A DNA stretch of 64,000 nucleotides from Candidatus Gottesmanbacteria bacterium (GTDB lineage Bacteria > Patescibacteriota > Microgenomatia > UBA10105). Within the stretch, counting starts at the first letter, position 1. Every line of letters starts with the position of its first letter. The DNA lies in assembly GCA_023245415.1 (NCBI GenBank), contig JAHFKJ010000004.1:2798-66797 (forward strand), read 5' to 3'. Position numbers and translations under genes: made by a program. Below the pieces are notes generated by a model. That model saw only the letters and a list, made by a program, of their open reading frames with translations, was not told where the DNA came from and made no database searches. Below, one piece after another: positions 27,739 through 45,675 of this stretch.

Positions 27739-27996
27739 ATGTCAACAACTGATGACACATTTTCAATTGGGACTAAAGTTAAAATTCTCAGTGATCCAGA
27801 GTCTGGACCTGGTCCATGGCCAGCTCAGCCTACGGGAACTATCATTTCCGACGCAGAAATAGTAGATGGAAGAAATGGACCTCTAAATACATACTGGGTT
27901 CAATTTGATGAACCTCAATATGATACCGACAGAAGTGGTCCTTATTCAAAATCTCAAGTATTAGAAAAGTATCTTATGGTCCAGGGACGGTCCTAA
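27739..27996 (+). CDS. hypothetical protein; C-terminus (QGRS*) encoded by repeat copy A
   Basis: 85 aa ORF; last 4 codons lie inside the 55-bp repeat. Confidence 0.4.
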   Translation: MSTTDDTFSIGTKVKILSDPESGPGPWPAQPTGTIISDAEIVDGRNGPLNTYWVQFDEPQYDTDRSGPYSKSQVLEKYLMVQGRS

Positions 27997-28039
27997 AACT
28001 AACCGTCACAACAATCTAAAAATAGCATAGTTTTATTGG
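27984..28039 (+). repeat. 55-bp island repeat, copy A (gggacggtcctaaaactaaccgtcacaacaatctaaaaatagcatagttttattgg)
   Basis: Direct sequence match to copies B-E; core GGACGGTCC palindrome plus GACGGT/ACCGTC inverted arms. Confidence 0.9.
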
Positions 28040-28112
28040 ATCCCCCGGACGGTTGCTACTCGGACTTTAAGGGAATACCTGTTTACTTGGCAAGCCACTG
28101 TATAATACCTTC

Positions 28113-28865
28113 ATGTGTGGATTTTACGCCAGAGCAGAACTTACTCCTACTGACTTTCAAAAACTCTATGGAGTGGACGATATTGATGATGCGCTACTTT
28201 CTCCGCGGTACAATATCCGACCCGGAACAGTAAATGTCGTGGTCACCCGCAACTCACCGAATAAGGCACAAGGGATGCTCTGGTCTTATTTACCCGATTG
28301 GCCAGGATTTCCGGAAAGCAGAGCAGTTATTAACGCACGAATTGAAAGTATAAAGGAAGGCAAGTCTTTCTTTAAAAAAGCGTTTCTATCACAAAGGTGT
28401 ATTGTCCCTGCGTCTCAATGGGTGGAGTGGGCACCAGTGTCAGGAATCAAAATACCTCATGCATTTAAATTGAAGGGTAGGGATAATTTTTCTTTTGCTG
28501 GGCTGTGGAGTGAATATACCAATCGGAATGGCAAACGAATTAAGGGCTACTGCATTATCACTACCGAACCCAATCCCCTCGCATCCAAAGTTCATAATCG
28601 ACAACCCGCAATTTTAAGAAAAAGTGATGAGAATACATGGCTTGATCCCGATGAAAAAGATATGGTCACTCTTTTGAAATGCCTCGACGTTTACCCGCAA
28701 TCTGACATGGAAGCATACCCAATAGTCAGAGATTTGAGCGAAAATAGTCCAGATATTCTAAAACCTATTACTAAAAATCAGCTCGAAACTCAAATAGCTA
28801 AAAAGCCAAAACTTGCAAAACGATTGAAAACTAAGATACCTTTTGGACAAGTACAATTGGTTTAA
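28113..28865 (+). CDS. SOS-response-associated peptidase (SRAP/YedK/HMCES family)
   Basis: MCG start with catalytic Cys2; RYNIRPGT, AGLWSEY, IITTEPN...HNRQPAIL motifs. Confidence 0.8.
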   Translation: MCGFYARAELTPTDFQKLYGVDDIDDALLSPRYNIRPGTVNVVVTRNSPNKAQGMLWSYLPDWPGFPESRAVINARIESIKEGKSFFKKAFLSQRCIVPASQWVEWAPVSGIKIPHAFKLKGRDNFSFAGLWSEYTNRNGKRIKGYCIITTEPNPLASKVHNRQPAILRKSDENTWLDPDEKDMVTLLKCLDVYPQSDMEAYPIVRDLSENSPDILKPITKNQLETQIAKKPKLAKRLKTKIPFGQVQLV

Positions 28866-29123
28866 TTTTAAAAATCTCTTGACTTGACTCCCCAATATTA
28901 GCGTACTTCGAACGTATTTTACTGAAGGTGAAAAGGATTTACAACCGATTTTTGTTTAGTCGGTCTGTACGCAATGGATGATAGTTCGAACTAATTATAC
29001 ACAATCGTAGTTATATTGCGGGGGTTATGGTTCGATTATCCTCACCATCCTGAGCTTGTCTAAGGATTTACCCTGAACGAAGCTGAACGACACGCCAGTC
29101 CACCTCTGGCGGAAAAATAGATC

Positions 29124-29573
29124 CTAATTTTCTTTTACTTGTACGATACGTTCATAGAAAACTTTCGGTTCAATAATCTGTAACCGCTTAAGTGGAGGAT
29201 GACTTCTGAGAATCAAAAGATCTTTATCCCCGGTAACCAGATAGTCTGCCTTACCACCAAGTGCACAAGTAATTATTTTGGCATCTTTCGGATCACGGAT
29301 TGCTACAGGTGAATGTGGAATAGGTGTAATCATTTTAGCTTTGCGTTTAAATAAATTGAGAAATGCGGCGATTTTTTTGTCGGTAAGGTGGTACTTCGCA
29401 GTTAATTTTGTACGTTTAAGTACCTCTTCAACTTCTATAAATAAACCCTGAGTGCTTATGATTAAAAAGTTGTTTTCCCGCCACAATTCAAGAATTAAAT
29501 AGGGGAATCCACGCTCAAGGATGATACCACTGACGAAAACGTTAGTATCAATCGTTACTCTGAGCTTTGTCAT
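29124..29573 (-). CDS. PIN-domain toxin (VapC-like)
   Basis: 149 aa; TIDTNVFVSG N-terminal acidic PIN motif; overlaps upstream antitoxin gene. Confidence 0.7.
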   Translation of the reverse strand: MTKLRVTIDTNVFVSGIILERGFPYLILELWRENNFLIISTQGLFIEVEEVLKRTKLTAKYHLTDKKIAAFLNLFKRKAKMITPIPHSPVAIRDPKDAKIITCALGGKADYLVTGDKDLLILRSHPPLKRLQIIEPKVFYERIVQVKEN

Positions 29574-29865
29574 ATAACTCTTGTCGAACTTGTTCCGTAA
29601 TCTCAGTTATTTCTTTATACACTTCGTCTGGATTTTTATCTCGGTTTTTCTTGCGGATGGCATCAATCATAGTAAAAGCTGCTTGTTCTTGCTGTAGTTC
29701 GTTGTATTTGTCCAACATCTCCAAACTGATAATCGCCGCTTGTGGAGCATTATTGGTCATCACGACTACTGGCCGTTTGGTCTTTTTGACCCGAGCAAAA
29801 ACTTTTTTATACCCGCGCTGAATTTCGCGGGCAGAAATAGTGGATGGAAAAGTGTATGTCAACAT
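29548..29865 (-). CDS. Phd/YefM-type antitoxin
   Basis: 105 aa; KRPVVVMTNNAPQAAIISLEMLDKYNEL matches Phd/YefM fold pattern; translationally coupled to PIN gene. Confidence 0.6.
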   Translation of the reverse strand: MLTYTFPSTISAREIQRGYKKVFARVKKTKRPVVVMTNNAPQAAIISLEMLDKYNELQQEQAAFTMIDAIRKKNRDKNPDEVYKEITEITEQVRQELYDKAQSND

Positions 29866-30028
29866 ACATACCAGTATAGAAGAATTTTAACTGTATGTCA
29901 AGTTGATGACAAATTTTCTAAAAATGCAGCTGGTTATTTTGAGGGTTATACATAATATACCTGCTGAATATATTTGAGACATTGAGCTTAATAGAATGTA
30001 ACAATAGTACATTGGGGTTTATCCCATA

Positions 30029-30754
30029 TCAGTTGTTAGCCGAGCTTGTAAACTCTAAACCTGATATTCCTCTATACCGTATACGTTCTGGGAGACTGTT
30101 GATTCCTCGCGGATATTTCAGCATAACGCGTTTATACGATGGTGCTAAAATTGTCTCCGATTGTTGTGCAACAGCATGATGGAGAAAATGTGCTTCGGTT
30201 GCCTCAGCCCTTGGGTTAATGTTCGGCTGATCGACAGTCAACCTGCCATTTGCCATGTCCCGTACATGAGAACAAATCCAGGCCATTGTGGCTAGTGCCT
30301 CAATCGGTTTGGTTTGTGCTTTAACAATAAATTCAGGCGGTATGAGTACGTACGCTACTTCTTCCACCTGTTGTTTGCCTTTAGTCGCCGCAAATAAGAC
30401 GTGTGGTTCGTCATGTTTGCTTTGCATTGTGAGAGCTAATTGGGGAGGCATACCTAGCTGAATTGCTGCAGCAATCATATTATCGGTAAGCGCCGTAGCT
30501 ACCCGGAGCTGATTCATTATCCACCAAGCGGTTGTTCCAACTTCCTGCATATACTGATCATGCCCTCTGTTGGCAAAATAAGCTACCCCTGCTGTGAAGA
30601 AATCACTGGTTGCTTGGGCTACCTTTTCCCAAGGAGCATCTCTCACATGTTCTATTGTGTTACCAACCGTATAGTGGGTTTTCACCACTACATTAAATAC
30701 ATCTACAAGACGCTCACTTGAAGGCAAATATGAATTTCCATCTTCAACAGGCAT
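30029..30754 (-). CDS. hypothetical protein (GC-rich, probably foreign)
   Basis: 241 aa ORF; local GC ~50% versus ~36% surroundings. Confidence 0.45.
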   Translation of the reverse strand: MPVEDGNSYLPSSERLVDVFNVVVKTHYTVGNTIEHVRDAPWEKVAQATSDFFTAGVAYFANRGHDQYMQEVGTTAWWIMNQLRVATALTDNMIAAAIQLGMPPQLALTMQSKHDEPHVLFAATKGKQQVEEVAYVLIPPEFIVKAQTKPIEALATMAWICSHVRDMANGRLTVDQPNINPRAEATEAHFLHHAVAQQSETILAPSYKRVMLKYPRGINSLPERIRYRGISGLEFTSSANN

Positions 30755-31285
30755 ATATCAATAGTTGTTAAAACTTATGAATCAGTAGAATGTGGAAGGA
30801 TAACAAAAGTTTCTAGGTTTGTCAATATATAGGTTATTATATAATTAACATTAAACTGTAATTATGAGGCTAATTTAAGGATTAATATGTCGATTAATAT
30901 TTTCTTATAGGTCGTCATTATAGAAGTAACATTCTATCTTAGAACTTACATTCAAACTATTCTGGCTTAAGTAATTTCTGATCGTCGTTATACGGATCGT
31001 TAACACGTGTACTGATCCTTTATGCCTGCATGTTTGATACGTCATAATGCTTTAAGAGTGAAAAAAGTGTGGCAATCTGAGTGATTTCCATTCTGGGATT
31101 GGTATGTGCCTGCACCTCAGTAGATTCTTCCGCTCCCCCGTACAATTGCTACTCTGACATTGAGGGAACATCTGTTTGACTCTCTTAACATGAAAGTATA
31201 TCAGAAGTCTTACTCTAATTTGAAGTAGAAGTGATTTAAATTGTTGCAAATATCTAACTCAGCCTAGTGGAGGATGTTCGGAATT

Positions 31286-31873
31286 TTAGCTTTTAGCAAT
31301 TGAGCTCATCCATTTGACAAATCGCTGTTCCTGGTTCAAATTACCTATCCAAGGTACTTTTAAAACTCTCGGATCGTTGAATGCTGATCCCCCTCTAAAT
31401 CCATTTACCTGTTCTGATACAGCAATAAAACCATGCTTATATCCATGGGGGCGTAAACGATAATAATCTACTCGAGCGGCTTGTCCTATACTTAAGGTTG
31501 GCTCATTTGAATACTTTTTAGTGGGAATGTGTACTACTCCTACAGCCTGACTAAATGAATCGGTAAATCCAATAGTATTTCTATCGAGGTTCACTAGTAC
31601 GAGCGCGTTATGATTTTCAAACACCTGTTGAATTACTCGAGTATTTGGAACATATTTGACAATATCCCATTCCCTTAGTTTACCAAGCACTGTCAGAGTA
31701 TTATGTTGTTGTCCCATTGTCTCATCCGCTCGATCAAACCCAAATGATTCCAAATAGTCTGAAATTTGTTCCTCAAAATTTAATTCGGCAAAATCAACCT
31801 CAACACCAGTTTGACCTTGTGGTGGCGAAATTTCTGTTCCGTCTTCACTTAGCATGGTTAAATTGCACCACAC
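31286..31873 (-). CDS. hypothetical protein (GC-rich, probably foreign)
   Basis: 195 aa ORF with elevated GC, adjacent to previous. Confidence 0.45.
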   Translation of the reverse strand: MWCNLTMLSEDGTEISPPQGQTGVEVDFAELNFEEQISDYLESFGFDRADETMGQQHNTLTVLGKLREWDIVKYVPNTRVIQQVFENHNALVLVNLDRNTIGFTDSFSQAVGVVHIPTKKYSNEPTLSIGQAARVDYYRLRPHGYKHGFIAVSEQVNGFRGGSAFNDPRVLKVPWIGNLNQEQRFVKWMSSIAKS

Positions 31874-32048
31874 TTCAGTTTGAGTTAGTTTTGATGCTAC
31901 TTTGCACCCCTGGTAGGATTCTCTTCGGCTATTTCAGCTCTCATTGAACTTGCCGAAGTGCTCCCCCTAAAGGACTTTCTGCAACTACAAGTTAGAGTTT
32001 GATTTAAGTTTAAACTAAAATCAAAATGGTCTTTGAAACGGTTCAACT

Positions 32049-33239: not shown

Positions 33240-33516
33240 ACTTCTAATTATAACTTAATGTTAAATAATGAAAAAATAGAGATATAACGAAGTTTTCCTG
33301 AAAAAGTAATGTCTATGATATATGAAGAAAAACTTGCAAACGTAGTCTTCAAACTAAAAAAAAGAAAGAAAAATTACAAGAAAGGGTTACAAATTATCCA
33401 AACGGTTTTTGAAACCTTTGACATTCAACCGGTATACGCCTAAAGATTGGTTACCGAATTAACCAACTGTATAGGCACTTTATGCTAGAATGCCCACAGC
33501 TTAATATAATCACTTT

Positions 33517-34107
33517 ATGTCAATGTCAAAACTTATTTACTCGCTAATTACCTCTCTTGATGGCTATATGGCGCCGGCGGACGAAAGTGGAACATGGGCT
33601 AAGCCAAACAAGGAAGTGGACGCTTTTATGGGTGACTTAAAACGACCAATCGGCACCTATCCATATGGACGAAAAATGTACGAGACTTTGGTCGATTGGA
33701 GTACTATGAATTTAGAGAATGAACCAGGTGTTACAGGAGACCACGTTCAAACTTGGAAGACAGCCGACAAAATAGTTTACTCGAAAACGCTCGATAAAGT
33801 ATCGAGTTCTAAAACGTTTATAAAAACGAACTTTGAGCCAGAAGATATTAAACGACGAAAACAAAGCTCGACTAGCGATCTAAGCATAGGTGGTCCTCAT
33901 ATTGCTGCTGAGGCTATAAAAGCTGGCTTTATTGACGAATATCACCAATTTATAGCACCTGTCACAATAGGGTCAGGTAATGCTTGGTTACCTGATAATG
34001 TTCGCGTAAACCTTGAACTAGTTAACCAAAAACGATTCCCGAACGGCTTTATATATCTTCGCTATCAAGTCATATACAATCATATACAAGGACGGTCCTC
34101 AAACTAG
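33517..34107 (+). CDS. dihydrofolate reductase family protein (RibD C-terminal-like), paralog C; C-terminus (QGRSSN*) encoded by repeat copy B
   Basis: LIYSLITSLDGYMAP typical RibD_C start; last 6 codons inside the 55-bp repeat. Confidence 0.75.
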   Translation: MSMSKLIYSLITSLDGYMAPADESGTWAKPNKEVDAFMGDLKRPIGTYPYGRKMYETLVDWSTMNLENEPGVTGDHVQTWKTADKIVYSKTLDKVSSSKTFIKTNFEPEDIKRRKQSSTSDLSIGGPHIAAEAIKAGFIDEYHQFIAPVTIGSGNAWLPDNVRVNLELVNQKRFPNGFIYLRYQVIYNHIQGRSSN

Positions 34108-34145
34108 TTACCACAACAACCTAAACAAAGCATAGTTTTATTAAC
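34089..34145 (+). repeat. 55-bp island repeat, copy B
   Basis: aggacggtcctcaaactagttaccacaacaacctaaacaaagcatagttttatt. Confidence 0.9.
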
Positions 34146-34211
34146 TGCCTCTTTAGTTGATATGTTCAGAAACAGAAAGATTGAAATTTGTATTGCAAAC
34201 CAAGATATAAC

Positions 34212-34598
34212 CTAATCTAATTGAACAATTTGTATAAGGTTACCGCATGTATCATTAAATACAGCGATCGTTGATCCCGTAACTTTTGTTGGTTGCATCG
34301 TAAACCCCACACCCAGCTCTTTTAGTCTTTCATATTCTTTTTGAATATCTTCAACAAAAAATTGTGTAGCTGGTATACCTTGCGTCAAAATAGATTCTTG
34401 AAATTGCTTTGCCGCTGGATTTACGTTTGGCTCCAGAAGAAGCTCGGTTCCATTTTGTTCGTCAGGTGAGACAACCGTTAACCATCTGTAGTCCCCAACA
34501 GATATATCCTTTTTTTTCACAAAACCTAAAATCTCTGTATAAAATTTCAGAGCTTTCTCTTGTTCGTTTACAAATACACTCGTTATCTTTATTTTCAC
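34212..34598 (-). CDS. VOC-family (glyoxalase/bleomycin-resistance fold) protein
   Basis: 128 aa; MKIKITSVFVNEQEKALKFYTEILGF typical VOC N-terminus. Confidence 0.75.
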   Translation of the reverse strand: MKIKITSVFVNEQEKALKFYTEILGFVKKKDISVGDYRWLTVVSPDEQNGTELLLEPNVNPAAKQFQESILTQGIPATQFFVEDIQKEYERLKELGVGFTMQPTKVTGSTIAVFNDTCGNLIQIVQLD

Positions 34599-34702
34599 AC
34601 AATGATTATATCATGACGTTCCGCTGCGCGTGATGAAAAATATGAGTACATATTTTATTTCAAATTGACTTCAACTTCATACGTATGTATAATACATTTA
34701 TA

Positions 34703-34948: not shown

Positions 34949-35092
34949 CTTTCTTCGCTCAACTACCACAAGTTACCGAACAATTCCTAATTTCTATTTA
35001 CCTCTTTTTTAGGTTCTCATGTCCAACTCTTGGTATTGAATTTTCAAGATTAAAATATCTGGCTCCACTTGGTGGAGGAAGTAACTTCAGAA

Positions 35093-35710
35093 TTATCCTA
35101 TTTTGATGGGTTCTGACGGTTCGTATGTTGCAATTATTACTCCGGTTGAGGTGATTTTTGTGTCAACCGCTTTAAACAGCTGCGGCTGTGTGCCGTTTGC
35201 GAACAATTTCTTGCCGGTGCCCAACGTCACCGGAAATGTCCAGATGTGCATTCGATCTATCAGATGATGTTGTAGGAGCGTTTGTATAAGATTGCCACTA
35301 CCCCATACCCAGAGATCAGGACCTGTGCCAGCTGGCGGATTAGTTTTCAGCTTTTTTATTTCCGCCACTATATCTCCCGTAATGAGCACTGAATTGTTCC
35401 AAGAAAGTTTCAAGGGTTTATGTGAAACAACGTACTTGCGCGTAGCGTTCCACGGTTTGGCTATGTGAGGTGCTTGTGTGTCAGTCGGCCAATAACCAGC
35501 AAAGATTTCGTAGGTGCGCCTTCCCAAGAGCAGCTCAAAAGGAGTGGTCATAAAATCATTTATTATCTTGCTCGACACTTCGTCTTCATAGTCTCCGCCT
35601 AACTGCCAACCTCCGTATGTAAAACCGTTTGATGTATCTTCCTGGGGTCCTCCCGGAGCTTGCATCACGCCGTCAAGAGTCATGAATGTCGTAGTGACGA
35701 TCTTTCTCAT
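35093..35710 (-). CDS. dihydrofolate reductase family protein (RibD C-terminal-like), paralog A'
   Basis: MRKIVTTTFMTLDGVMQAPGGPQEDTSNGFTYGGWQ; ~88% nt identity to 25755-26426, lacking a 42-bp insert. Confidence 0.8.
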   Translation of the reverse strand: MRKIVTTTFMTLDGVMQAPGGPQEDTSNGFTYGGWQLGGDYEDEVSSKIINDFMTTPFELLLGRRTYEIFAGYWPTDTQAPHIAKPWNATRKYVVSHKPLKLSWNNSVLITGDIVAEIKKLKTNPPAGTGPDLWVWGSGNLIQTLLQHHLIDRMHIWTFPVTLGTGKKLFANGTQPQLFKAVDTKITSTGVIIATYEPSEPIKIG

Positions 35711-35913
35711 ATGGACTTTTTTAGTCTACCAAATCTTAAATCAAAATACCTAACCTTTGATGGCTCGGCCTGACGGGTCAAAATAATTCTAGTTTTCATC
35801 AGTTAATTATACCAAAGTTCGAACGCTATTAAGGACGCACAATTGACCGCTAAAAAGCTCTGTGATAATCTTACTTACTATCAAATAGATAGTAAAATCA
35901 CCAGAACAATAAT

Positions 35914-36243
35914 ATGGGCGACCGCACTTTATATCACAACAAATATCAAAAAAAATACGGACTGAAAAAAAATGGCAGATTATTCTTTATGAAATGTGTT
36001 GGAGTTGCTTTCATTATTGTCGGTATTCTATCATTTGCTTTAGTGGTTTTGGTGGGTAGTCTATTTTTCCCAATCGGTCCTGATGGATTATCGCCACAAG
36101 ATGCTGTGATACAAAGGATAATGAGCAATTTGGAAATACTCAGTGGAGTTAGCTTCGTCGCTGGATTTTCCATCACCTGTCTGGGTTTTATTGTAGGTGT
36201 TTATAGATCTTCTTTAAAGTCAACGGGCCACTCCACCGGCTGA
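35914..36243 (+). CDS. hypothetical membrane protein
   Basis: 109 aa, 2 TM; followed 14 nt later by repeat copy C. Confidence 0.4.
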   Translation: MGDRTLYHNKYQKKYGLKKNGRLFFMKCVGVAFIIVGILSFALVVLVGSLFFPIGPDGLSPQDAVIQRIMSNLEILSGVSFVAGFSITCLGFIVGVYRSSLKSTGHSTG

Positions 36244-36257
36244 AGCGGGTGGTCTAG

Positions 36258-36310
36258 GGACGGTCCTCAAACTAACCTTTACAACAATCTAAATAGCATA
36301 ATTCTATTGG
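36258..36310 (+). repeat. 55-bp island repeat, copy C
   Basis: gggacggtcctcaaactaacctttacaacaatctaaatagcataattctattgg. Confidence 0.9.
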
Positions 36311-36407
36311 CTTCCCCACTTTGCAGATGTGTTCAGGTACCGAGAAATAGAGTTTAGAATGCGACCCGCTTATGCAACTATTTGACAATTTGAAGCTCCC
36401 CAAGAAT

Positions 36408-36779
36408 CTATGAACCCCGAAAAATCTTCTCCATCTTCCTACCCTTTGCCAACTCGTCCACCAGCTTATCCAGATACCGAACCTTCTGCGTCAACGGATT
36501 CTCGATTTCTTCTATGCGATATCCACAAATTACTCCGGTGATGAGACGTGCATTGGGGTTAAGCGTTGCCTGTTGGAAGAATCTTTCAAAAGTAGCATTT
36601 TCTTTTATTAGTTCCCGCAGATTCTTGTTGTCGAAGCCAGTTAGCCACTCTATTACTTGATTCAATTCTTCTTTTGTTCTCCCTTTCTTCTCCACCTTTA
36701 CGACATACATGGGATAGACCGAGGCGATGGTCATATTTGCGATCCGTTGATTGTGCGTGTTGGAATTATTCATATTCAT
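36408..36779 (-). CDS. DUF2200-like protein
   Basis: 123 aa; VYPMYVVKVEKKGRTKEELNQVIEWLTGF pattern. Confidence 0.55.
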   Translation of the reverse strand: MNMNNSNTHNQRIANMTIASVYPMYVVKVEKKGRTKEELNQVIEWLTGFDNKNLRELIKENATFERFFQQATLNPNARLITGVICGYRIEEIENPLTQKVRYLDKLVDELAKGRKMEKIFRGS

Positions 36780-37336
36780 TTAACCAACCTAAAAGTCATA
36801 CTTGTTCTAACAGGGGTAGTTTCTTCTATTTTAGTTCTTTCAAGCTTTATCTTATCTGTGTCTATATTTTCAAATAGTTTTAGTCCTTTTCCAAGAAGAA
36901 CAGGCATAATATCTATCTGTAATTCATCACATAACCCCGCATTGAGGCATTGCTGAACGGTGCTTGCGCCGCCTATTACCTGAACATCTTTGTCACTCGC
37001 TGTTTTCTTTGCCTGAGAAATAGCACTCTCAATACCATCAGTTACAAAGGTGAAGGTAAGTCTGTCATTTCCTTTGGGATACTTTGCTGGAGGTGTATGT
37101 GTCAAGACAAAAATGGGAGTTTGAAATTCATAAGTCTCGTTAGCCCACATAAATGGGTCTGCCATCTCATACACATGTCTTCCCATAATAGCAGCGCCTG
37201 TGTTTTTAATCATTTCCTGAAAAGTTGGAGCATCATGTAGTTCACTAAAATCTGAATAAAGCTTTTCTACACTTCCTTTGGAATCGTTAATGTATCCATC
37301 CAAAGACATACTCATTCCAGCAATTACTTTTCCCAT
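36776..37336 (-). CDS. dihydrofolate reductase family protein (RibD C-terminal-like), paralog B'
   Basis: MGKVIAGMSMSLDGYINDS...; ~93% identical to paralog B, with a near-identical 3' flank. Confidence 0.8.
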   Translation of the reverse strand: MGKVIAGMSMSLDGYINDSKGSVEKLYSDFSELHDAPTFQEMIKNTGAAIMGRHVYEMADPFMWANETYEFQTPIFVLTHTPPAKYPKGNDRLTFTFVTDGIESAISQAKKTASDKDVQVIGGASTVQQCLNAGLCDELQIDIMPVLLGKGLKLFENIDTDKIKLERTKIEETTPVRTSMTFRLVK

Positions 37337-37424
37337 GATGAAATTATAACAGAAGTTTCGAACGATCCAAAAAAGGGTATTAAAAAATGAGACTAATTAT
37401 ATTGGCTTCTCGTCGTAGAACAAA

Positions 37425-37643: not shown

Positions 37644-37845
37644 TATGAGAAGAAAGCCTAAAAGGTAGTGATGAAAAGTCAGTTTGGTTTCAATAATCGC
37701 TGTGGTTATCTTTGGAGTATGGGAAAAAAAAGAGTATTGTAAATAAATTATTGCCCGAGTGGTAAAAGTTGATCTAATCTTTTTCTTTCATGAGGGTAGT
37801 ATATCAAAGGTGCAAATGTCCAACTCGGGATGAAGAAAATTCAAG

Positions 37846-37985
37846 GCTAATTTTATTGACTCCCCGCACCTGAGGAAGTCATAACCGCGGATTTCATGCC
37901 TATTATACAAGCCTTTCAGCATGTGGGATACAGAGGAGAGTTGCTGCAAAGGTGGGTGGAGATAAAGAAACTGCAAACCTATCTT
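37846..37985 (+). repeat. ~130-bp direct repeat, copy 1 (flanks the HTH-GHKL/STAS module)
   Basis: ~88% identical to 39066-39212; core gtcataaccgcggatttcatgcctattatacaagcctttcagcatgtgggatacagaggag. Confidence 0.85.
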
Positions 37986-38001: not shown

Positions 38002-38268
38002 TTACTGTTTTTTTAATATAGCCAAAGTAGCCTCAACAGAAGGATTATTGATGTTATCCAATCTAACCCTCTCTTTAAATTTCTGATGAAGCGGAGTTAA
38101 AAATTCGTCTGCCCAAGAAGGGGTTAATACTATAACACCAGTAAAATCCACAATAACTTCTTCTTCTGTAGATATCTGGCCTAGCACCGGTTGAAATGCT
38201 AACCACGCTTCTTTTCCTGAAGGACGTGATACTAAAGTTGTACCGAATTTCTTTAATTGTATGGTCAT
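38002..38268 (-). CDS. STAS-like (DUF4325-type) small protein, putative anti-anti-sigma/partner-switching component
   Basis: 88 aa; profile and size resemble STAS-like DUF4325 proteins encoded beside GHKL ATPases; overlaps upstream gene by 4 nt. Confidence 0.5.
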   Translation of the reverse strand: MTIQLKKFGTTLVSRPSGKEAWLAFQPVLGQISTEEEVIVDFTGVIVLTPSWADEFLTPLHQKFKERVRLDNINNPSVEATLAILKKQ

Positions 38269-39023
38269 GCTACTGCTTCAAAATGAATTATAGCCAAACA
38301 CCCGCTTATTGAAGTTTTTGCTTGATGTATTGCTAAATCATCATCACCTTGTTTTAAGTATAAATCGGCATTACCAGTTTGGTAATAGAGTGTAAAGGGA
38401 TTTTTTACAATAATTGATCGAACGAATTTTAAGCCGTTTCCTCTTGCTTCTGGATACCGACCAGAAATAGTTTCTGTAAAAGCAACTTTTATAGCTTCAT
38501 CTGAACTTTTCAAATTCGTACGCACTCTCTTTAATGTAGTAAGTATACCTTGTCCACGATCTGCTAATGCTACTTTCCTGTTTCGAATACTGTATGCGAA
38601 AAAGATACCAGGTATATCGGGCCAGTTTCCTAAATTATGATCGAAAGAATTATTCCCAATCTCTCCAGCAACGGCAGTAATAAGTGAAACAATCTCAATT
38701 GGAGCTACACTGCTTAGTTTTGATTGAAATTTCTCAAGTCTTGCTTGAAATACGTCACGAGATTGACAATACATATCGGGATTAGGTTCCGATGCTTGAA
38801 CTACTTCTACCCAATTCCGAGCAATAATGTCGACCTCTAACAAGAAATGATCAATATCTGACTGACGATAAAATCTATGACCTCGAGGACCACTACGAAA
38901 CGTAGGTAAACGACCAGCAAAATCCCATCTTCTCAGGGTATCTATTGAGACGTTAAGTAGTACGGCAACCTCACCAATGGACAAAAGCTTATCTTGCATC
39001 ATCATATGAGCAAATCTATGCAA
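38265..39023 (-). CDS. MerR/excisionase-type HTH fused to GHKL (histidine-kinase-like) ATPase domain
   Basis: N-terminus LSIGEVAVLLNVSIDTLRRWDFAGRL is an HTH_17/MerR-type HTH. C-terminal N-box EIGNNSFDH, G1 box ADRGQGI, G2 box ARGNGL are HATPase_c motifs as in RsbW/SpoIIAB-type kinases. Confidence 0.6.
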   Translation of the reverse strand: MHRFAHMMMQDKLLSIGEVAVLLNVSIDTLRRWDFAGRLPTFRSGPRGHRFYRQSDIDHFLLEVDIIARNWVEVVQASEPNPDMYCQSRDVFQARLEKFQSKLSSVAPIEIVSLITAVAGEIGNNSFDHNLGNWPDIPGIFFAYSIRNRKVALADRGQGILTTLKRVRTNLKSSDEAIKVAFTETISGRYPEARGNGLKFVRSIIVKNPFTLYYQTGNADLYLKQGDDDLAIHQAKTSISGCLAIIHFEAVA

Positions 39024-39065
39024 ATTATACCAAATCTATGCAAATCTATGCAAGCACTTAATTTT

Positions 39066-39212
39066 GAGGCTAAAATGATAGTGTTCCCCGCGCTTGACGA
39101 CGTCATAACCACGGATTTCATACCTACTATACAAACCTTTCAGCATGTAGGATACAGAGGAGAAATGCGGCAAAGGTAGATTAAAGTTTAGAAATTACAA
39201 ACCTCTCATCCA
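39066..39212 (+). repeat. ~130-bp direct repeat, copy 2
   Basis: see copy 1. Confidence 0.85.
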
Positions 39213-39283
39213 TTTACTCAAATCGATCAATAGAAACTGCATCAATGGATATTTTGTCATAAGGATATGATCCAAGGACGGTC

Positions 39284-39320
39284 CTCAAACTAATTGTTCC
39301 TAATGCGCTTGAAAGAAACT
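39284..39320 (+). repeat. 55-bp island repeat, copy D (degenerate: 18-bp core ggacggtcctcaaactaa retained, rest diverged)
   Basis: aaggacggtcctcaaactaattgttcctaatgcgcttg. Confidence 0.7.
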
Positions 39321-39822: not shown

Positions 39823-41145
39823 ATGAAGACTAAATGGAAACTCACATTAACAATAATTTTTTCCTTAACCCTATTTTTCTTCTCTTTTAATGTCAGTACC
39901 TCTTTTGCTAAAGATTGGAAAATTAATAAAATAATTTCAGGTAATGTAAATCCTTCTTATTTACAATTAGTGTCTGCAAAAAATGAATACGGTTTAGTTT
40001 GGGAAGATAATCGAGAAGCTGATTTAGAACTATATTTTTCCAGGATAAACAATAGTGGAGTAAAAATTGGTCAAGAAATAAAACTGACTGATGATACAGA
40101 GCACGACGAAACACCTGCTTTAGTTTGGAATGGTAAAGATTATGCTTTATTTTGGAGTCATAGCCGCAGTCAAATATATTTCACTCAGTTTAAAGAAAAT
40201 GGAAAGAAAATCATTGATAATAAATCATTAGAAGTTCATTCAAAGGGTTATGCCATCCATGTATCAGCAGTGTGGAATGGTGAAGAATACGGTGTCGTTT
40301 GGTGGGATGTACGGGATGCACCAGCTTGTAATCCTCCTGGTACAAGAGGTAGGGCTTTTTTTGCTAGAGTTGATAAAGATGGCAACATGATTGGTGAAGA
40401 AATACCTGTAAGTGATGCTTTTAGTAATCCTTGGCAAGATTATCACCCTTTAATGGTCTGGGATGGGGAAAATTATGCAATTTTTTGGAATGATAGCCGA
40501 GAAGGTGGAGAATGTACTGGTGGAGTTGGAGATGGAAATATTTACATGGCTAAAGTAAGTAGAAATGGAGAGAAAATATTAGGTGATATAAAACTACAGA
40601 GTAACGAACCTAGTCCACAACTTTGGGATATAGAGTGGGATGGTGTGAATTACGTCATCGGATATAACGGCAGAATTGCACAAGGTCATTTAGCAAAGAT
40701 GGACACTAATGGAAATACAATTCTAGTTGATCTTCCGATCAATTCCGACAATCAAGGGGGATCACCAATGATATCAGCTTATGATGATAAATATTATATT
40801 GCTTGGAGTGATTTTAGAGATCGTACTCCTGAAACTTTTTATAACACTGAAATTTACTATACAATCACTGATAAAAATGGAAATAAATTAATACCTGAAA
40901 CAAGAATTACCTATCAAGATGATTCACAAGCAAGAAACACTAAGATAACCTTCATTAAAAAATCAAAAGGAATAGCATGGTTAGATCTTAGAAGTGGTTT
41001 ACCTGAAGTCTATTTTGCATCAGAGAGTAATTATAAAATACCTTTGCCTAGTTTTACTTTTCAAATCCTTCCAACTATTCCCACACCTCCATCAAGTCCA
41101 TCCGCCCCTCCGATTCCATCTATGCTTCCATTTCCTACTTTTTGA
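39823..41145 (+). CDS. secreted repeat protein (beta-propeller-like W-x-G-x-Y repeats) with Pro-rich C-terminus
   Basis: Signal peptide; ~8 repeats of WNGKDYALFW / VWNGEEYGVVWWD / VWDGENYAIFWND / EWDGVNYVIGYNG type; ends PSSPSAPPIPSMLPFPTF. Confidence 0.55.
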   Translation: MKTKWKLTLTIIFSLTLFFFSFNVSTSFAKDWKINKIISGNVNPSYLQLVSAKNEYGLVWEDNREADLELYFSRINNSGVKIGQEIKLTDDTEHDETPALVWNGKDYALFWSHSRSQIYFTQFKENGKKIIDNKSLEVHSKGYAIHVSAVWNGEEYGVVWWDVRDAPACNPPGTRGRAFFARVDKDGNMIGEEIPVSDAFSNPWQDYHPLMVWDGENYAIFWNDSREGGECTGGVGDGNIYMAKVSRNGEKILGDIKLQSNEPSPQLWDIEWDGVNYVIGYNGRIAQGHLAKMDTNGNTILVDLPINSDNQGGSPMISAYDDKYYIAWSDFRDRTPETFYNTEIYYTITDKNGNKLIPETRITYQDDSQARNTKITFIKKSKGIAWLDLRSGLPEVYFASESNYKIPLPSFTFQILPTIPTPPSSPSAPPIPSMLPFPTF

Positions 41146-41238
41146 AATACGTTACCCCTACCTGATGTAATCTGCCTGCGATTCGCCGATCCGGGATCGT
41201 TTTAGATATAACAATCCAGGAAATTTATTACTTTTTAA

Positions 41239-41505
41239 CTAATTTATTCCCAAAAACTCTTTTATCATCATTCGTAACGTTGTTTTTCCTTTGGTGGTTT
41301 TGAAATATTCTTCTCTGCGTTTCGCATCTTTTTCATTGCGATACGCTTCATAATGAATGAGCTCAAAGGGAATATAGGGTTTTGTAGAAAGTTCAGAACC
41401 AGAATTGTGCTCTTGTACACGTCTTTTTAGATCTGAAGTAAAACCGACGTAAATAAAATCTTTTGTTAGACTACTTAGAACATACACGTAATAGAAATTC
41501 GACAT
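41239..41505 (-). CDS. GIY-YIG nuclease family protein (short; C-terminally truncated paralog of 45791-46249)
   Basis: FYYVYVLSS...IYVGFTSDLKRRVQEHN GIY-YIG motif; nucleotides 41266-41370 ~95% identical to 46010-46115. Confidence 0.75.
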   Translation of the reverse strand: MSNFYYVYVLSSLTKDFIYVGFTSDLKRRVQEHNSGSELSTKPYIPFELIHYEAYRNEKDAKRREEYFKTTKGKTTLRMMIKEFLGIN

Positions 41506-41509
41506 GAGT

Positions 41510-41670
41510 AATAGTGAGGACGCACCAGTCGTGACGAACCATACGATTCATCACTCCGGCGCATCCCAACGCGCACAACAGTTTTAGTCACGCTATCGTG
41601 GCGAAAAGGTATACCGTCGGGTATACCTCGTAGCGGTGCACCGTATGGTGCGCTGCTCGCCACCACGCCG
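41510..41670 (-). other. degenerate copy of group I intron 3' half + tRNA-Asn 3' region (intron/tRNA remnant)
   Basis: Minus-strand segments GCGCACCATACGGTGCACCGC, GAGGTATACCCGACGGTATACC and GATAGCGTGACT parallel the intron's GACGCACCATGCGGTGCATC, GTAGAGACTATACACCCGATCC and GAGATAGTCCAGTCC at 46378-46575; a GGTTCG T-loop-like piece follows. Confidence 0.35.
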
Positions 41671-41785
41671 ATTACACTATATCAGATTTTCAATAGGGAA
41701 ACGGTTGCCAGACTTAGGATCCAACTCGAAGTAGCACAAAAACTAGCCAATAATCCGCTCTATTATGAAGTTGTGGAGGTAACCA

Positions 41786-41989
41786 ATGGAAGATTTTGCC
41801 AACTACCCGTACCGTCTGAGAACTAAAAATGGACGCTATGTGAGCCAACAAACACTCTCTAGGTTGTCCAGCTATAGCCAGAAGTATCTGTCGTTATCGG
41901 AAACTGGAAAAGCTAAACTGTTTACGCGTTGCCTGAAGATAATTTTGGAGTCGTTAGGGATAAAATATATCGCTCCAGGACACTTCTAA
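41786..41989 (+). CDS. hypothetical small protein
   Basis: 67 aa ORF with GGAGG 7 nt upstream of ATG. Confidence 0.3.
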   Translation: MEDFANYPYRLRTKNGRYVSQQTLSRLSSYSQKYLSLSETGKAKLFTRCLKIILESLGIKYIAPGHF

Positions 41990-42144
41990 AAAGAATTTTG
42001 TGTGTTTCGACAAGTGTTTTCATTAACCTTTCTTTCTGCGCTGAGGTAGTTGTTTCTAAGTTGGTGGAAAAAACTATTCTTTTTATCTTCTGATTATGCC
42101 TTATAATAGCCTCTGTCATGAAATTTAACCTCAAGTGTAGGAAT

Positions 42145-44586
42145 TTATTTTAACCATCTTCGAACTACATTTAGCCGATAGACTAATTTAAACGTTTCGA
42201 CAATGAAAAACATAAGAACCGATAAACCTATTGCAATGAGCCAATAATTCAAACCTAGATTACTTAACCCAAAAAATTGCATCATAGTGGGTGTTGAGAA
42301 TGGCAACACCTGTAAACTAAACCCGGCAAGAACGGCAATTATCAGCCATTTGTTTTCAAAAAGATGATTTCTCCAAAATGGAGTCAATAATGCTCTTACG
42401 GAAAAAACATAAGCCAGAGAGTTAAGCCCCAAGGTAATAAAAACTACAGAACGAGCCATGATAATATCGCCAGACATTTTATATACGATAACGAATGACG
42501 ACAGCGCTATTAAACCCGCCACTAAGCTCACAAAACCTATGAGAGCAATCATCCATCTATTCACTAAGCGCTCTCCTGACGGACGGGGTTTCTCTCTCAT
42601 AATACCCGTCCTTTTAGGATCAATTGTTAATGTTAAATTTGGGAATCCGTCTGAAATCAAATTTATCCAGAGAATCTGGACAGCGCTTATTGGTAAGGGT
42701 AATCCAAGTACTATGCCTCCAACAACAACCAGAATCTCTGCAAAAGCATCACACATCAGATATAGGATTATTTTTCTGATGTTTTCAAACATTACTCTTC
42801 CTTCTTCTATCGCTCCTATTATCGTAGAAAAGTTAGAATCTAGAAGAACTAAATCTGCTGATTCTTTAGCAACGTCAGTCGCTTCACCTACCACAATACC
42901 AATATCAGCCTTGTGTAATGCCGGTGCGTCATTGACTCCGTCACCCATCATTGCCACAATTTCCCCATTTCTTTTCAAAGCTTCCACTATCATTAGCTTT
43001 TGATCGGGGGTGGTTCTGGCAAATAGCCGTATTGATTTTACTTTTTGTACCAATTCCTCAACGGTTAGCTTCTCTAACTCGTCGCCTGTCATTATTTCCT
43101 CTTTATCAACTGGTATTCCTAACTCGGATAAGACAAACTCTGAAGTTTTGGGGTAATCCCCCGTAATCACGGTGGTTTTGATACCTGCCGTCTTAGCTAA
43201 ATCAAGAGCTTCTTTAACTCCCGAACGAACCGGATCTGTAAAAGCCAATATGCCTACCCAGGTAAGATTTCCTTTAGCATCAGAAGTTTCTATACTTTTT
43301 TTCTCAACGGAAACTTCTTTTTTAGCAAGACCAATAAGTCTTTTCCCTTGTTTGCTTAAATCATCAATCGTTGAAACGATATCCTCTTTTTCTTTTTCTG
43401 ACAACGTTGTCCATTCCAGTAAAAGTTCAGGCGCTCCGTTCACAAAAAGCACATTATTATCTTTATACCACTGATGGAGACTGACAAAAAAACGTTCTCT
43501 TGGAGAGAAAGGTATGCTGTCAAGTCTGGGATGTTCGGAAACAAAGTCTTTAATAATTGTTCGTCCCCACTCAAAGGCAGAGATGACAACTGGGTCATCT
43601 AAATCGTTTGCTAAAAGTACCTGTTGTGCTAATTCCATTTCGTTTCCGATATGGTCAACGACCTCCATTTTCCCTTGGGTTAAAGTACCAGTTTTATCTA
43701 CACAGATGACCGTTACCCCGCCAAGTGTTTCAGCTGCCGATAGTTTTCTCACTAATCCCCTGCGCTTAACGATCTTTTGCATACCGATAGCCAAAACTAC
43801 GGTAAGGGAAACAAGAAGCCCTTCCGGAATGCTGGATACTGCCAAAGCGACAGAAGTCACGAAGATTTCCGTCACATTAAAACGGTACAAAATGCCAATA
43901 ATGAACACTATTGCTGTTAGCACTCCTACTATAATTACCAATTGTTTACTGAATATTTTGAGTTGGCATTGAAGGGGAGAATCCTCCTCCTGTTCTTGTA
44001 TTTGTTTAGCAATCGCCCCCATTTTTGTAAATGCTCCTGTTGTTTCAACAATCATCACTCCTTGCCCTGAAGATATTGTCGTACCCATAAATACGCTATC
44101 ATCCTTAACTTTGTTAACTGGAACACTTTCACCAGTAAGTACCGCCTCATCAATATAGAGACGGTTAGCAAACGTAATTTTTCCATCAGCTGGTATTTTT
44201 ATTCCCTGATCCAAAATCACCACATCACCGGAAACAATTTCTGATGTGTTAATGGTGCTTCTTTTTCCTTCCCGGACAACATTAGCCTTGTTTGTAACGT
44301 AGTGTTTTAGGGCTAAGAGAGCGTTAGTGGCCTTACTTTCTTGGATAAACCCCAAAATGGTATTAATAAATACTGCTAAGAAGATGATAAGGGAATCGGA
44401 ATAATGCCCAATAATCAAAGTAACAAAAGCTGCAAAACCCAAGACATAGATAAGAGGACTTCTAAGCTGTTGAACAAACAAAGAAAACTGACTGGGTGGT
44501 GGTTTTTCGGGCAAAATATTCAGACCGTCCTGAAGCTGTCTCTTTTTTACTTCCTCATTTGATAATCCTTGTTCATTTGGATACAT
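42145..44586 (-). CDS. cation-transporting P-type ATPase (type II, Ca2+-ATPase-like)
   Basis: 813 aa; DKTGTLT phosphorylation motif, TGDYPKTS-type nucleotide domain, GDGVNDAPAL hinge, 10 TM. Confidence 0.9.
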   Translation of the reverse strand: MYPNEQGLSNEEVKKRQLQDGLNILPEKPPPSQFSLFVQQLRSPLIYVLGFAAFVTLIIGHYSDSLIIFLAVFINTILGFIQESKATNALLALKHYVTNKANVVREGKRSTINTSEIVSGDVVILDQGIKIPADGKITFANRLYIDEAVLTGESVPVNKVKDDSVFMGTTISSGQGVMIVETTGAFTKMGAIAKQIQEQEEDSPLQCQLKIFSKQLVIIVGVLTAIVFIIGILYRFNVTEIFVTSVALAVSSIPEGLLVSLTVVLAIGMQKIVKRRGLVRKLSAAETLGGVTVICVDKTGTLTQGKMEVVDHIGNEMELAQQVLLANDLDDPVVISAFEWGRTIIKDFVSEHPRLDSIPFSPRERFFVSLHQWYKDNNVLFVNGAPELLLEWTTLSEKEKEDIVSTIDDLSKQGKRLIGLAKKEVSVEKKSIETSDAKGNLTWVGILAFTDPVRSGVKEALDLAKTAGIKTTVITGDYPKTSEFVLSELGIPVDKEEIMTGDELEKLTVEELVQKVKSIRLFARTTPDQKLMIVEALKRNGEIVAMMGDGVNDAPALHKADIGIVVGEATDVAKESADLVLLDSNFSTIIGAIEEGRVMFENIRKIILYLMCDAFAEILVVVGGIVLGLPLPISAVQILWINLISDGFPNLTLTIDPKRTGIMREKPRPSGERLVNRWMIALIGFVSLVAGLIALSSFVIVYKMSGDIIMARSVVFITLGLNSLAYVFSVRALLTPFWRNHLFENKWLIIAVLAGFSLQVLPFSTPTMMQFFGLSNLGLNYWLIAIGLSVLMFFIVETFKLVYRLNVVRRWLK

Positions 44587-44606
44587 ACGTTAAATACACA
44601 CTTCTT

Positions 44607-45548
44607 TTATTTAATCCCTAAGATAAATAGGTAAGTAAAAAATAGTAATAGTAAAACTATTCCAACCCACTTTGGAATTGGCTTACCACTGTAACGTCGC
44701 AGAATAAATACAAAACAAATCGTTGTTAAGATTAACCACACCCAATCCATTATTGGTACAGTCATAACAGTGGAAAAAAGCATAGCCACGCCACCAATAA
44801 ACAATAAGTTATAAATATTGCTTCCAATGATATTGCCAATGGTAATTTTCTCTTGGTGCTCCTCCTGAGTAAAAAAAGTAGTAAATAGTTCCGGTAAAGA
44901 AGTAGCCACTGAAGTTAAAGACAACCCCAGAATCGTTGTTGAATAACCAGTGAGGATAGATATGCTCTCAACCGAAGTAACGATTAAGAAACCTCCTAAA
45001 ATAATTCCTGCGATTGATAATATGACCGAAACTATTTTTCCAAAAGTGAGTTTTTCATTGTTACGTTTCTTGAATTGTGCCGAGTCCTCATGACTTCGCC
45101 CAAACATGCCCAATTCATATTCTCCAATGGTAAATAAAATCGCCAACACAAGAAGAAACAGCCCGGAAAATAGAGAAGGGAGCTTCATCAACTGCAGAAT
45201 TAAAAAGAGTGCGGTTATACCCAAGAGAATCAATGCATTACGCTGTGTCTTGGTTGTGCCAATGCGCAGTTTTCCAATTAAAACGCCCGCTGGTAAAACC
45301 ATAAGAATATTGACGATATTTGAGCCAACGATGTTGCCAAACGCTAGACCGGCGTCATGCTTCAGAACAGCTATTGTGGATACAGTTAACTCCGGTAGTG
45401 ATGTGCCAAAAGCTACAATAGTAGTTCCAACAATAAGCGGTGAAATACGAATGACTCGAGAAATTTTTTCAACTAATTTAACGAGTGTATAAGTAGAAAA
45501 TAAAAGAACTGCAATACCTATGCAAAACTTTATTAACAAATCAATCAT
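44607..45548 (-). CDS. Ca2+/Na+ antiporter (CaCA/YrbG family)
   Basis: 313 aa; two alpha-repeats GTSLPELTVS and ATSLPELFTT. Confidence 0.8.
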   Translation of the reverse strand: MIDLLIKFCIGIAVLLFSTYTLVKLVEKISRVIRISPLIVGTTIVAFGTSLPELTVSTIAVLKHDAGLAFGNIVGSNIVNILMVLPAGVLIGKLRIGTTKTQRNALILLGITALFLILQLMKLPSLFSGLFLLVLAILFTIGEYELGMFGRSHEDSAQFKKRNNEKLTFGKIVSVILSIAGIILGGFLIVTSVESISILTGYSTTILGLSLTSVATSLPELFTTFFTQEEHQEKITIGNIIGSNIYNLLFIGGVAMLFSTVMTVPIMDWVWLILTTICFVFILRRYSGKPIPKWVGIVLLLLFFTYLFILGIK

Positions 45549-45619
45549 ATGTTCATTATTATGAGTTTATGCTTGAAATTCTTACGATTGAATAAAAAGT
45601 TAACGACTAAGATAAATCT

Positions 45620-45675
45620 AAGGACGGTCCTCAAACTAACCGTCACAACAATCTAAAAATAGAACAATTTCATTC
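45620..45675 (+). repeat. 55-bp island repeat, copy E
   Basis: aaggacggtcctcaaactaaccgtcacaacaatctaaaaatagaacaatttcattc. Confidence 0.9.

Follow-up and report, generated by a model that had tools for sequence, protein, structure and literature searches.

Five co-oriented copies of a locally amplified intergenic repeat in an accessory region of a Candidatus Gottesmanbacteria genome

The intergenic DNA of some bacteria is a mosaic of a few short repeated modules, as in the bacterial interspersed mosaic elements (BIMEs) of Escherichia coli and the neisserial intergenic mosaic elements (NIMEs), which occur with dRS3 repeats, in Neisseria. Site-specific recombinases, for their part, act at cores that have spacers of 6-8 bp in the case of tyrosine recombinases and a 2-bp centre in the case of serine recombinases. 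We know of no integron-like system in Patescibacteria, and a literature search for one found none. Here we describe a non-coding repeat that is present in five copies inside an 18-kb stretch of accessory genes in an uncultured Candidatus Gottesmanbacteria bacterium (GTDB lineage Bacteria; Patescibacteriota; Microgenomatia; UBA10105). The stretch of DNA that was analysed, hereafter the window, comprises 64,000 nucleotides (GenBank assembly GCA_023245415.1, contig JAHFKJ010000004.1, positions 2,798 to 66,797 of the forward strand), and it was considered together with ~10 kb of additional flank of the contig, giving ~74 kb in all. A first-pass annotation had reported five co-oriented copies of a ~55-bp repeat that mark gene 3' boundaries in this region, and had taken them for a boundary element of inserted gene cassettes. 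The observation is real, yet it is narrower than first stated.

The repeat is recognised by an 18-nt core (GGACGGTCCTMAAACTAR/GGACGGTCCTCAAACTAA), which, allowing at most one mismatch, matches the window at 27985, 34090, 36258, 39276 and 45622, each time on the plus strand. None of 100 dinucleotide-preserving shuffles of the window yielded a core match, so that the five co-oriented copies are not a product of chance, and GGACNGTCC occurs at these five sites only. Copies 1, 2, 3 and 5 can be aligned over ~67-70 nt, from -8 to +62 with respect to the core, at 76-90% identity. Copy 4 retains ~26-43 nt and is alignable from about -21 to +22; it had been described as degenerate and placed at 39284, and its homology is indeed shortened, but its core, at 39276, is perfect, and it is not a degenerate 55-mer (the earlier coordinates were off by 1-8 nt). 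Searches with a profile of the repeat added no copy to these five, either in the window or in the ~10 kb of extra flank, in line with the earlier statement that all copies share one strand and are confined to the accessory region: the other 46 kb of the window and the flank hold none. The same arrangement is found, 99.9-100% identical, in contigs of three ENA assemblies and two Logan runs, and such agreement across five independent assemblies implies that the repeat is not an assembly artefact. A comparison of empty with occupied sites, suggested earlier as a check, met with the same arrangement in all five of these assemblies, and no structural variants were seen among them.

The five copies differ in their surroundings. 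Copy 1 (27977..28046, plus strand; core 27985-28002, with the one mismatch TCA>TAA) overlaps the final 5 codons and the stop of an 85-aa open reading frame (ORF) at 27739-27996; a second GGACGGT comes directly after it, and a local repeat unit at 28028-28084 follows. Copy 2 (34084..34258, plus strand; core 34090-34107, with the one mismatch TAA>TAG) exists in a long form and provides the final 6 codons and the stop of RibD_C paralogue C (hereafter RibD_C-C; 33517-34107), with a 10-nt tandem duplication (TCATATACAA twice) immediately 5' of it. Copy 3, likewise a long form (36200..36414, plus strand; core 36258-36275), is flanked by two convergent ORFs, 35914-36243 on the plus strand and 36408-36779 (DUF2200) on the minus strand. 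The shortened copy 4 (39255..39297, plus strand; core 39276-39293) lies between the divergent genes 38265-39023 (minus strand) and 39823-41145 (plus strand), with no intact plus-strand gene upstream. Copy 5 (45616..45700, plus strand; core 45622-45639) is situated between the stop of a GIY-YIG gene (45791-46279, minus strand) and the start of a Na/Ca-exchanger gene (44607-45548, minus strand), 68 nt upstream of the latter, where there is no plus-strand gene end. Location at gene 3' boundaries is thus borne out for three of the five copies and fails for copies 4 and 5, which no plus-strand gene precedes.

Conservation is concentrated in the core, where 2 of 18 columns vary, as against 27 of the 52 columns outside it (Fisher p = 0.002; p = 0.04 in a permutation test over any 18-nt window). 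The core contains an 11-bp palindrome, AGGACGGTCCT, and the palindrome noticed earlier is therefore present, in the form GGAC-G-GTCC; the inverted arms GACGGT/ACCGTC that had been ascribed to the repeat as a whole exist in copies 1 and 5 only. The copies have nested extents: all pairwise homologies between them overlap solely at the core, the left edges are sharp (-5 to -21) with unrelated DNA joined there, and the right edges are ragged, ending at +20, +62, +80 and +160. Such a conserved core of 18-26 bp suggests a function, with recognition by some factor as a candidate.

How are the copies related to one another? Copies 2 and 3 are homologous on both sides beyond the 70-nt unit, sharing a stretch from -58 to +157, and none of 300 shuffles reached the observed score, either upstream or downstream; the downstream homology reaches +169 in copy 2 and +157 in copy 3, where it meets the stop codons of the convergent genes. 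The sequence TTTATAGATCTTCTTTAAAGTCA, at 36200-36222 on the upstream side of copy 3, represents a decayed RibD_C-C 3' end (TTTATATATCTTCGCTATCAAGTCA) of 25 nt. Copy 4 is nearest to copy 2, with which it shares about -21 to +20; it encodes HQWIFCHKDMIQGRSSN followed by a stop, compared with YQVIYNHIQGRSSN followed by a stop in RibD_C-C, and it may carry a remnant of a RibD_C 3' end as well. Together, the remnant at copy 3 and the possible one at copy 4 imply that copies 2, 3 and 4 descend from a single segment made up of a RibD_C 3' end and its flank, and hence that the genes to the left of these three copies are not independent of one another. At diagnostic positions copies 1, 3 and 5 group against copy 2, which a simple tree can accommodate: copy 2 (with copy 4) would have split off first, and copies 1 and 5 would be later and shorter derivatives of the copy-3 lineage. 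Gene conversion between the copies was considered and is not required, because this simple tree already explains the pattern.

These relationships narrow two of the earlier claims. The proposal that the repeat is fused to unrelated genes holds in so far as unrelated DNA is joined at the left edge, but not in the sense that the genes at copies 2, 3 and 4 have independent histories. Likewise, the notion of a cassette boundary element is correct with regard to the joints of unrelated DNA, but does not apply to copy 3: the one indel that can be reconstructed, a segment of 994 nt (35786-36779) located between the RibD_C genes a' and b' and absent from the a/b pair (26470-26491), holds copy 3 in its middle and not at its border.

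The protein tails encoded by the repeat are instructive in this regard. As stated in the first-pass annotation, two ORFs run into the repeat and terminate in QGRS(SN)-stop: the ORF at 27739-27996 ends YLMVQGRS-stop inside copy 1, and the one at 33517-34107 ends NHIQGRSSN-stop inside copy 2; a third ORF, 35914-36243, has its stop 14 nt before copy 3, also as reported. The codon preceding GGA is YAR in all five copies (CAG, CAA, TAG, CAA and TAA), and a frame x-(V/I)-(Q/stop)-G-R-S-S-N-stop is consequently readable in every copy. Given that the repeat has a stop codon in each frame within 50 nt, a joint at the end of an ORF suffices for any ORF that enters frame 0 to end in QGRS(SN)-stop. In RibD_C-C the tail comprises 10 aa that are absent from ~120 homologues (184-188 aa long), of which the closest, at 75-80% identity, terminate QVIPEKI-stop, RLA-stop or RVT-stop. 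In the DNA, homology to the orthologues can be followed as far as CAAGT(C/G)ATA, which is 19 nt short of the core, and the gap between is filled by the 10-nt tandem duplication; by this sequence comparison, the RibD_C-C tail is foreign to its protein family. The family of the 85-aa ORF (109 matches) is conserved as far as the residues YL, beyond which the tails vary and comprise 2-6 residues; the tail MVQGRS is of normal length and resembles no family tail, with family tails too variable to judge whether it is native. For annotation, the C-terminal QGRS(SN) tails of these two proteins are best regarded as encoded by the repeat and not as inherited with the genes. A coding role of the repeat itself was considered and rejected: frame 1 is open in the copies, yet substitutions are mostly non-synonymous, and a tiny minus-strand ORF (MLFLDCCDG-stop) is not conserved.

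What kind of region harbours the repeat? Between ~24 and 46 kb, the window encodes five RibD_C paralogues, DUF1801, DUF2200, glyoxalase and SRAP proteins, a PIN/Phd pair, an MFS transporter, a P-type ATPase with a Na/Ca exchanger and two GIY-YIG genes, and the core genes rpoD and dnaG lie past this region, at 51-54 kb. The host RpoD and DnaG are 70% and 44% identical, respectively, to those of a metagenome-assembled genome named 'Patescibacteria group bacterium', with nothing closer among 185,579 species representatives. RibD_C-C shares 75% identity with proteins from organisms in which DnaG is only 25% identical to that of the window, and the region accordingly looks accessory and, to judge from such comparisons, partly horizontally acquired. 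RibD_C orthologues at 75-80% amino acid identity are found in three unrelated genomic contexts, in hosts with very divergent core genes, and share a conserved 3' flank of ~60 nt (TGAGCAAYGTTAATA...GCCTTAAGTTCAAATAGRTACT) that is missing from the window (L036 2979-3060, L028 10556-10620 and L050 1007-1070; compare 34066-34107 of the window); the RibD_C gene thus seems to move horizontally along with a ~60-nt flank. An ungapped comparison of this conserved flank with the repeat revealed no homology.

Duplication is common in the region and preserves orientation throughout. At 64-93% identity, 25750-27079 is repeated at 35082-37370, 41266-41531 at 46010-46275 and 37837-37983 at 39060-39207, and repeat pairs are direct in 14 of 14 cases in the accessory region and in 18 of 18 in the window, which means that co-orientation is not a special property of the core repeat. 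Moreover, the final ~20 nt of the repeat (TAGTTTTATTGGATCCCC) recur in a second local family of 45 nt, D9. Member D9a (27335..27382, plus strand), in the promoter region of a minus-strand gene, has in common with the main repeat the 3' module TAATTTTATTGGCTC(CCC) and the 5' motif RTCCAR; D9b (37364..37411, plus strand) is located upstream of the RibD_C gene 36776-37336 (minus strand), and D9c (37818..37865, plus strand) is followed by a 123-nt repeat at 37861-37983, whose second copy, at 39085-39207, is just to the left of repeat copy 4. A consensus of the shared module, with up to 3 mismatches, has 5 matches as compared with 0.14 expected, all of them on the plus strand and in the accessory region. 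The D9 units are placed directly upstream of TTGGAC-N15-TATAAT promoters that belong to minus-strand genes. A core-less copy of the right part and flank of copy 1 is present at 31121..31177 (plus strand), 75-82% identical to 28028-28084. Taken together, the sharing of the D9 module and this core-less fragment indicate that the non-coding DNA of the accessory region is a mosaic of few short modules.

Two duplications deserve separate mention. The minus-strand TTGGAC-N15-TATAAT promoter is duplicated (27052-27079 and 27314-27340) around a 76-aa ORF (27080-27310, minus strand), and the breakpoint of this duplication is exactly at GTCCAA, a motif that is shared with the left edge of the main repeat. 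The ~148-nt repeat 37837-37983/39060-39207 is 78% identical overall and 81% within its 123-nt core, and contains a TATAAT box and a minus-strand ORF of 15 codons.

How might five copies of one core have come to lie at such joints? We tentatively favour, at rather less than an even chance, an origin of all five copies from the 3' flank of an acquired RibD_C gene: as paralogous remnants of it, they would have spread through direct duplication and recombination within the region and would now form joints of the mosaic. The original segment would have been the non-coding 3' flank of a horizontally acquired RibD_C gene (the 'DHFR-family' gene of the first-pass annotation), whose longest form, from about -58 to +160, would survive in copies 2 and 3, with shorter, core-bearing pieces at three further junctions. 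Spread within the ~20-kb plastic region would have proceeded by orientation-preserving local duplication and recombination, presumably without a dedicated enzyme, and the same process could have made the five RibD_C paralogues, the two GIY-YIG genes and the D9 promoter modules. At present, the copies might serve as short direct homology and support unequal recombination, by which the blocks between them would be duplicated, deleted or replaced. The in-frame 'fusions' would then be by-products of joints that fell at or just inside the ends of left-hand ORFs.

Several observations weigh against this scenario. Copies 1, 4 and 5 are unrelated to the others on both sides within 5-80 nt, which calls for several extra replacement events, and plain segmental duplication would be expected to carry neighbouring genes too. 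Core conservation favours selection on the core, that is, that something binds there, or else a process that acts there, and the neutral decay of a relic does not predict a perfect core between unrecognisable flanks, as in copy 4. Three independent short pieces all hold the core, though it must be said that the copies were found by searching for the core, and the sole core-less fragment that was seen derives from the flank of copy 1. Finally, the DNA covered amounts to ~74 kb of one genome.

Conceivably, the core is instead a dedicated site-specific recombination site, att-like or analogous to the attC sites of integrons, whose recombinase is encoded elsewhere and whose blocks are, or once were, excisable. 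We consider this unlikely, even if it accommodates a good deal: direct repeats of an 18-26-bp palindromic core border accessory, apparently partly acquired blocks; every copy has a sharp left edge; copy 1 overlaps the 3' end of a real gene and leaves a tail of family-normal length, as an attL that rebuilds its target would; copy 4 is hybrid-like, with repeat to the left and core followed by unrelated DNA from +20; and the region adjoins a tRNA gene. The dyad, however, spans only 5+1+5 bp around a 1-bp centre, at odds with the spacers and centres of the recombinase cores mentioned at the outset, and homology edges are found at both ends of the core, 18-26 bp apart, and not at one crossover point. 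Neither does the arrangement fit, since the RibD_C a'/b' pair straddles copy 3 and the 994-nt indel holds that copy internally, the tRNA 3' end is not duplicated, and the five independent assemblies show no structural polymorphism. No integrase, resolvase, transposase or RAYT-like (REP-associated tyrosine transposase, REP denoting repetitive extragenic palindrome) gene was found in the ~74 kb, as represented by the window ORFs and the called flank genes, when these were searched against Pfam, NCBIfam, PHROGs, PADLOC and PDB sequences; Phage_integrase had no match in ORFs of at least 100 aa in the window or flanks, and a Y1 transposase-like match was not obtained in the window. Proteins of 241, 195, 373, 440 and 252 aa displayed no recombinase-like features in the same five libraries (the 373-aa protein has an HExxH motif, and the 440-aa protein is secreted and repeat-rich). 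Of the earlier suggestion of a recombinase target, the direct repeats and the conserved core stand, and no recombinase was found in the ~74 kb. Nor was a related site found in the public collections, which were scanned for exact patterns of the core (RGGACGGTCCTMAAACTARYY or GGACGGTCCTNAAACTA) and of the second conserved block: there were 0 matches in the GTDB species representatives, none in plasmid and phage collections, 1 chance match in a high-GC coding region of the JGI metagenomes and 6 chance matches in IMG/VR that did not extend. An nhmmer profile of the repeat, applied to 50 fetched loci that include ~60 kb from the organisms with the closest RibD_C orthologues, recovered the window's own strain only, and HIP1 (GCGATCGC), a sign of cyanobacterial origin, had 0 sites. 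The earlier remark that no described element has this sequence is consistent with the absence of the repeat from all collections scanned.

A more far-reaching variant would see in the core the site of a novel gene-capture system of Patescibacteria, an integron analogue with a short palindromic site in place of a folded attC and with an unlinked, unrecognised recombinase; this we regard as highly doubtful, as we do the corollary that such a system would assemble acquired multi-gene blocks beside an intron-bearing tRNA gene. Every component of such a system that could be tested here is missing. Neither attC box, RYYYAAC or GTTRRRY, is present in any of the five copies (regular-expression search from -40 to +180). 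Single-stranded DNA folds reach -2 to -9 kcal/mol, with z-scores from +1.3 to -2.7 that are mostly within the range of shuffles, and RNA folds behave alike on either strand, so that the folding check proposed earlier found neither strand to do better than shuffles. The alignment consensus folds at just -3 to -7 kcal/mol, reaching -6.6 kcal/mol in the comparison with attC, and a weak 6-bp helix AAAACTA/TAGTTTT maintained by G-U pairs on the minus strand is a point in favour of a recombination site. The blocks between copies measure 2.2-6.3 kb and hold 2-7 genes each, on both strands; being multi-gene and of mixed orientation, they, together with the missing boxes, stable fold and integrase, speak against the attC-like nature that had been proposed.

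A different possibility, which strikes us as decidedly improbable, is that the repeat acts in cis and is retained at every site where it lands, either as the site of a DNA-binding protein (for example the helix-turn-helix (HTH) protein 38265-39023) or as a signal at transcript 3' ends. It would account for a core that is far better conserved than the rest and for an 11-bp palindrome such as dimeric binding sites typically have; four of the five copies follow at least one gene end, the D9 units just upstream of TTGGAC...TATAAT promoters have the 3' module too, and copy 5 precedes an operon start by 70-140 nt. The copies have no consistent position with respect to promoters, however: two are between convergent genes and the others ~65-265 nt upstream of the nearest inferred promoter or gene start. 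Moreover, the site of a regulator would be expected elsewhere in the genome, whereas none was found in the other 56 kb examined. The repeat contains no consensus promoter either, as no consistent -10 or -35 element was detected inside it on either strand. An intrinsic terminator (GC-rich hairpin and T run) is matched, by a loose pattern, on the minus strand of copy 5 only (GACGGT...ACCGTC, then CTTAGATTTA), the stem being absent from copies 2, 3 and 4, and no fold beats shuffles. The copies have no Rfam match, at the gathering threshold or at E <= 1, and the tests do not place the repeat in a terminator family, the alternative that had been named earlier. It is least probable, to a degree that makes it hardly credible, that the repeat is a miniature non-autonomous transposable element, such as a miniature inverted-repeat transposable element (MITE), a REP/REPIN-like element or an IS200/IS605-type end, inserted in one orientation near gene ends. 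The repeat is short, with fairly sharp boundaries in four copies and one orientation on a strand of uniformly negative GC skew, and the second GGACGGT directly after copy 1 and the 10-nt tandem duplication that abuts copy 2 are further points in its favour. Yet there are no terminal inverted repeats (the best is 5/7, in copy 1 only), no consistent target-site duplication of at least 5 nt at any choice of boundary, and no hairpin that is stable or conserved; the direct repeat AATCTAA (7 nt) that flanks the first 28 nt of copy 5 is within chance for the offsets scanned. The copies end raggedly on the right, copies 2 and 3 have flanks in common on either side, just five copies exist within 18 kb with none in the other 56 kb examined, and other local repeats are direct too. 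Neither a transposase nor a RAYT-like gene was found in the ~74 kb, and the earlier suggestion of a MITE- or REP-like element is not supported.

Apart from the repeat, the locus displays further features. The right edge of the accessory region is marked by a tRNA gene with a group I intron (46339..46609, minus strand; intron 46385-46590; Rfam RF00028, 69.9 bits, E = 1e-16), which has canonical acceptor, D and T arms and the intron in the anticodon loop, and which was missed by a whole-window Rfam scan at the gathering threshold and by default ARAGORN. When introns were allowed, ARAGORN called tRNA-Asp(GUC) with an implausibly long variable arm, such that the anticodon is uncertain. A duplication of the tRNA 3' end that might serve as an island att site was sought and is not present in the window. 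Directly downstream of this gene lies the GIY-YIG gene 45791-46279 (minus strand), with a CxxC-rich C-terminal tail, and a truncated second copy at 41239-41505 (minus strand) is 93% identical over 266 nt. Homologues of the GIY-YIG gene at 70-80% identity gave 853 metagenome matches, the few named ones being Woesebacteria, Microgenomates or 'Patescibacteria group bacterium', and at one further locus (L048, 2550-3218) the homologue is likewise preceded by a tRNA gene (Gln), and linker and hairpin are similar there. A link between this nuclease and the repeat was considered and rejected: its homologues, which Patescibacteria commonly encode, occur downstream of tRNA genes, none with the repeat nearby. 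Upstream of the truncated GIY-YIG copy, 640 nt of non-coding DNA (41506-42144), GC-rich for this genome, contain perfect hairpins such as GGTATACCGTCGGGTATACC and GGTGCACCGTATGGTGCGC; Rfam found no match there at E <= 1, and the segment may be a decayed intron or a novel RNA.

The minus-strand segment 38002-39023 encodes a 252-aa protein with an excisionase/MerR-type HTH and kinase-like ATPase motifs, followed by an 88-aa STAS-like DUF4325 protein, and the HTH domain of the former matches Mad1 of the MADS defence system (PADLOC, E = 9e-11). Repetition is also seen elsewhere in the window. A 30-nt unit (TCAAGCCATTCTACCCCCGAGGTGGAAATA) is perfectly duplicated in tandem at 18078-18137, with a 70% identical third copy at 27564-27593. 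A duplication of 205 nt (73% identity) connects 17086-17289, outside the accessory region, with 25370-25574 in the DUF1801 gene at the left edge of the region. Internal tandem repeats of ~96 and ~375 nt (60-67% identity) occupy 59412-60744 of a plus-strand ORF (59275-61224, 649 aa) that has no Pfam match.

How, then, does the locus compare with described systems? On present evidence, the repeat is a lineage-specific, locally amplified intergenic repeat, whose practical use is that of a marker of rearrangement joints; were its core an active recombination site, it would show how the very small genomes of uncultured Patescibacteria collect and shuffle foreign genes. The likeness to integron attC sites, and to clusters of attC sites lacking integron integrases (CALIN), is in the co-oriented 60-70-nt repeats at ORF 3' ends, with ORFs that enter the site, and in the small accessory genes nearby (glyoxalase, toxin-antitoxin, DUF). 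Unlike attC and CALIN arrays, the locus has no R''/R' boxes, folded bottom strand or IntI, its 2-6-kb blocks are multi-gene and of mixed orientation, and two of the five copies have no preceding co-oriented ORF. The att cores of islands accreted in tandem at a gene 3' end are comparable in so far as the direct repeats here may delimit foreign blocks and the leftmost may complete a resident ORF, with a tRNA gene at the edge, but no integrase was found in the ~74 kb, the repeated sequence is not that of the tRNA 3' end, a duplicated gene pair straddles the repeat, and neither excision nor empty-site variants were seen. With MITEs and Correia-type elements the repeat has in common that it is short, non-coding, located at gene ends and able to alter the C-termini of ORFs; it differs in having no terminal inverted repeats, no target-site duplications, ragged right ends and copies that, within the ~74 kb covered, are clustered and not dispersed. 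As for BIMEs and NIMEs, they share neither sequence similarity, nor a stable REP-type hairpin, nor a known associated enzyme with the elements described here, and they number hundreds of copies genome-wide, in contrast to ~ten module copies in one orientation within one 20-kb region. What the locus has in common with them is its architecture: the core unit, the TAATTTTATTGGCTCCCC module, the 28028-28084/31121-31177 unit and the 123-nt unit are combined in various ways between genes and at points of rearrangement, and one of these modules carries a short palindrome.

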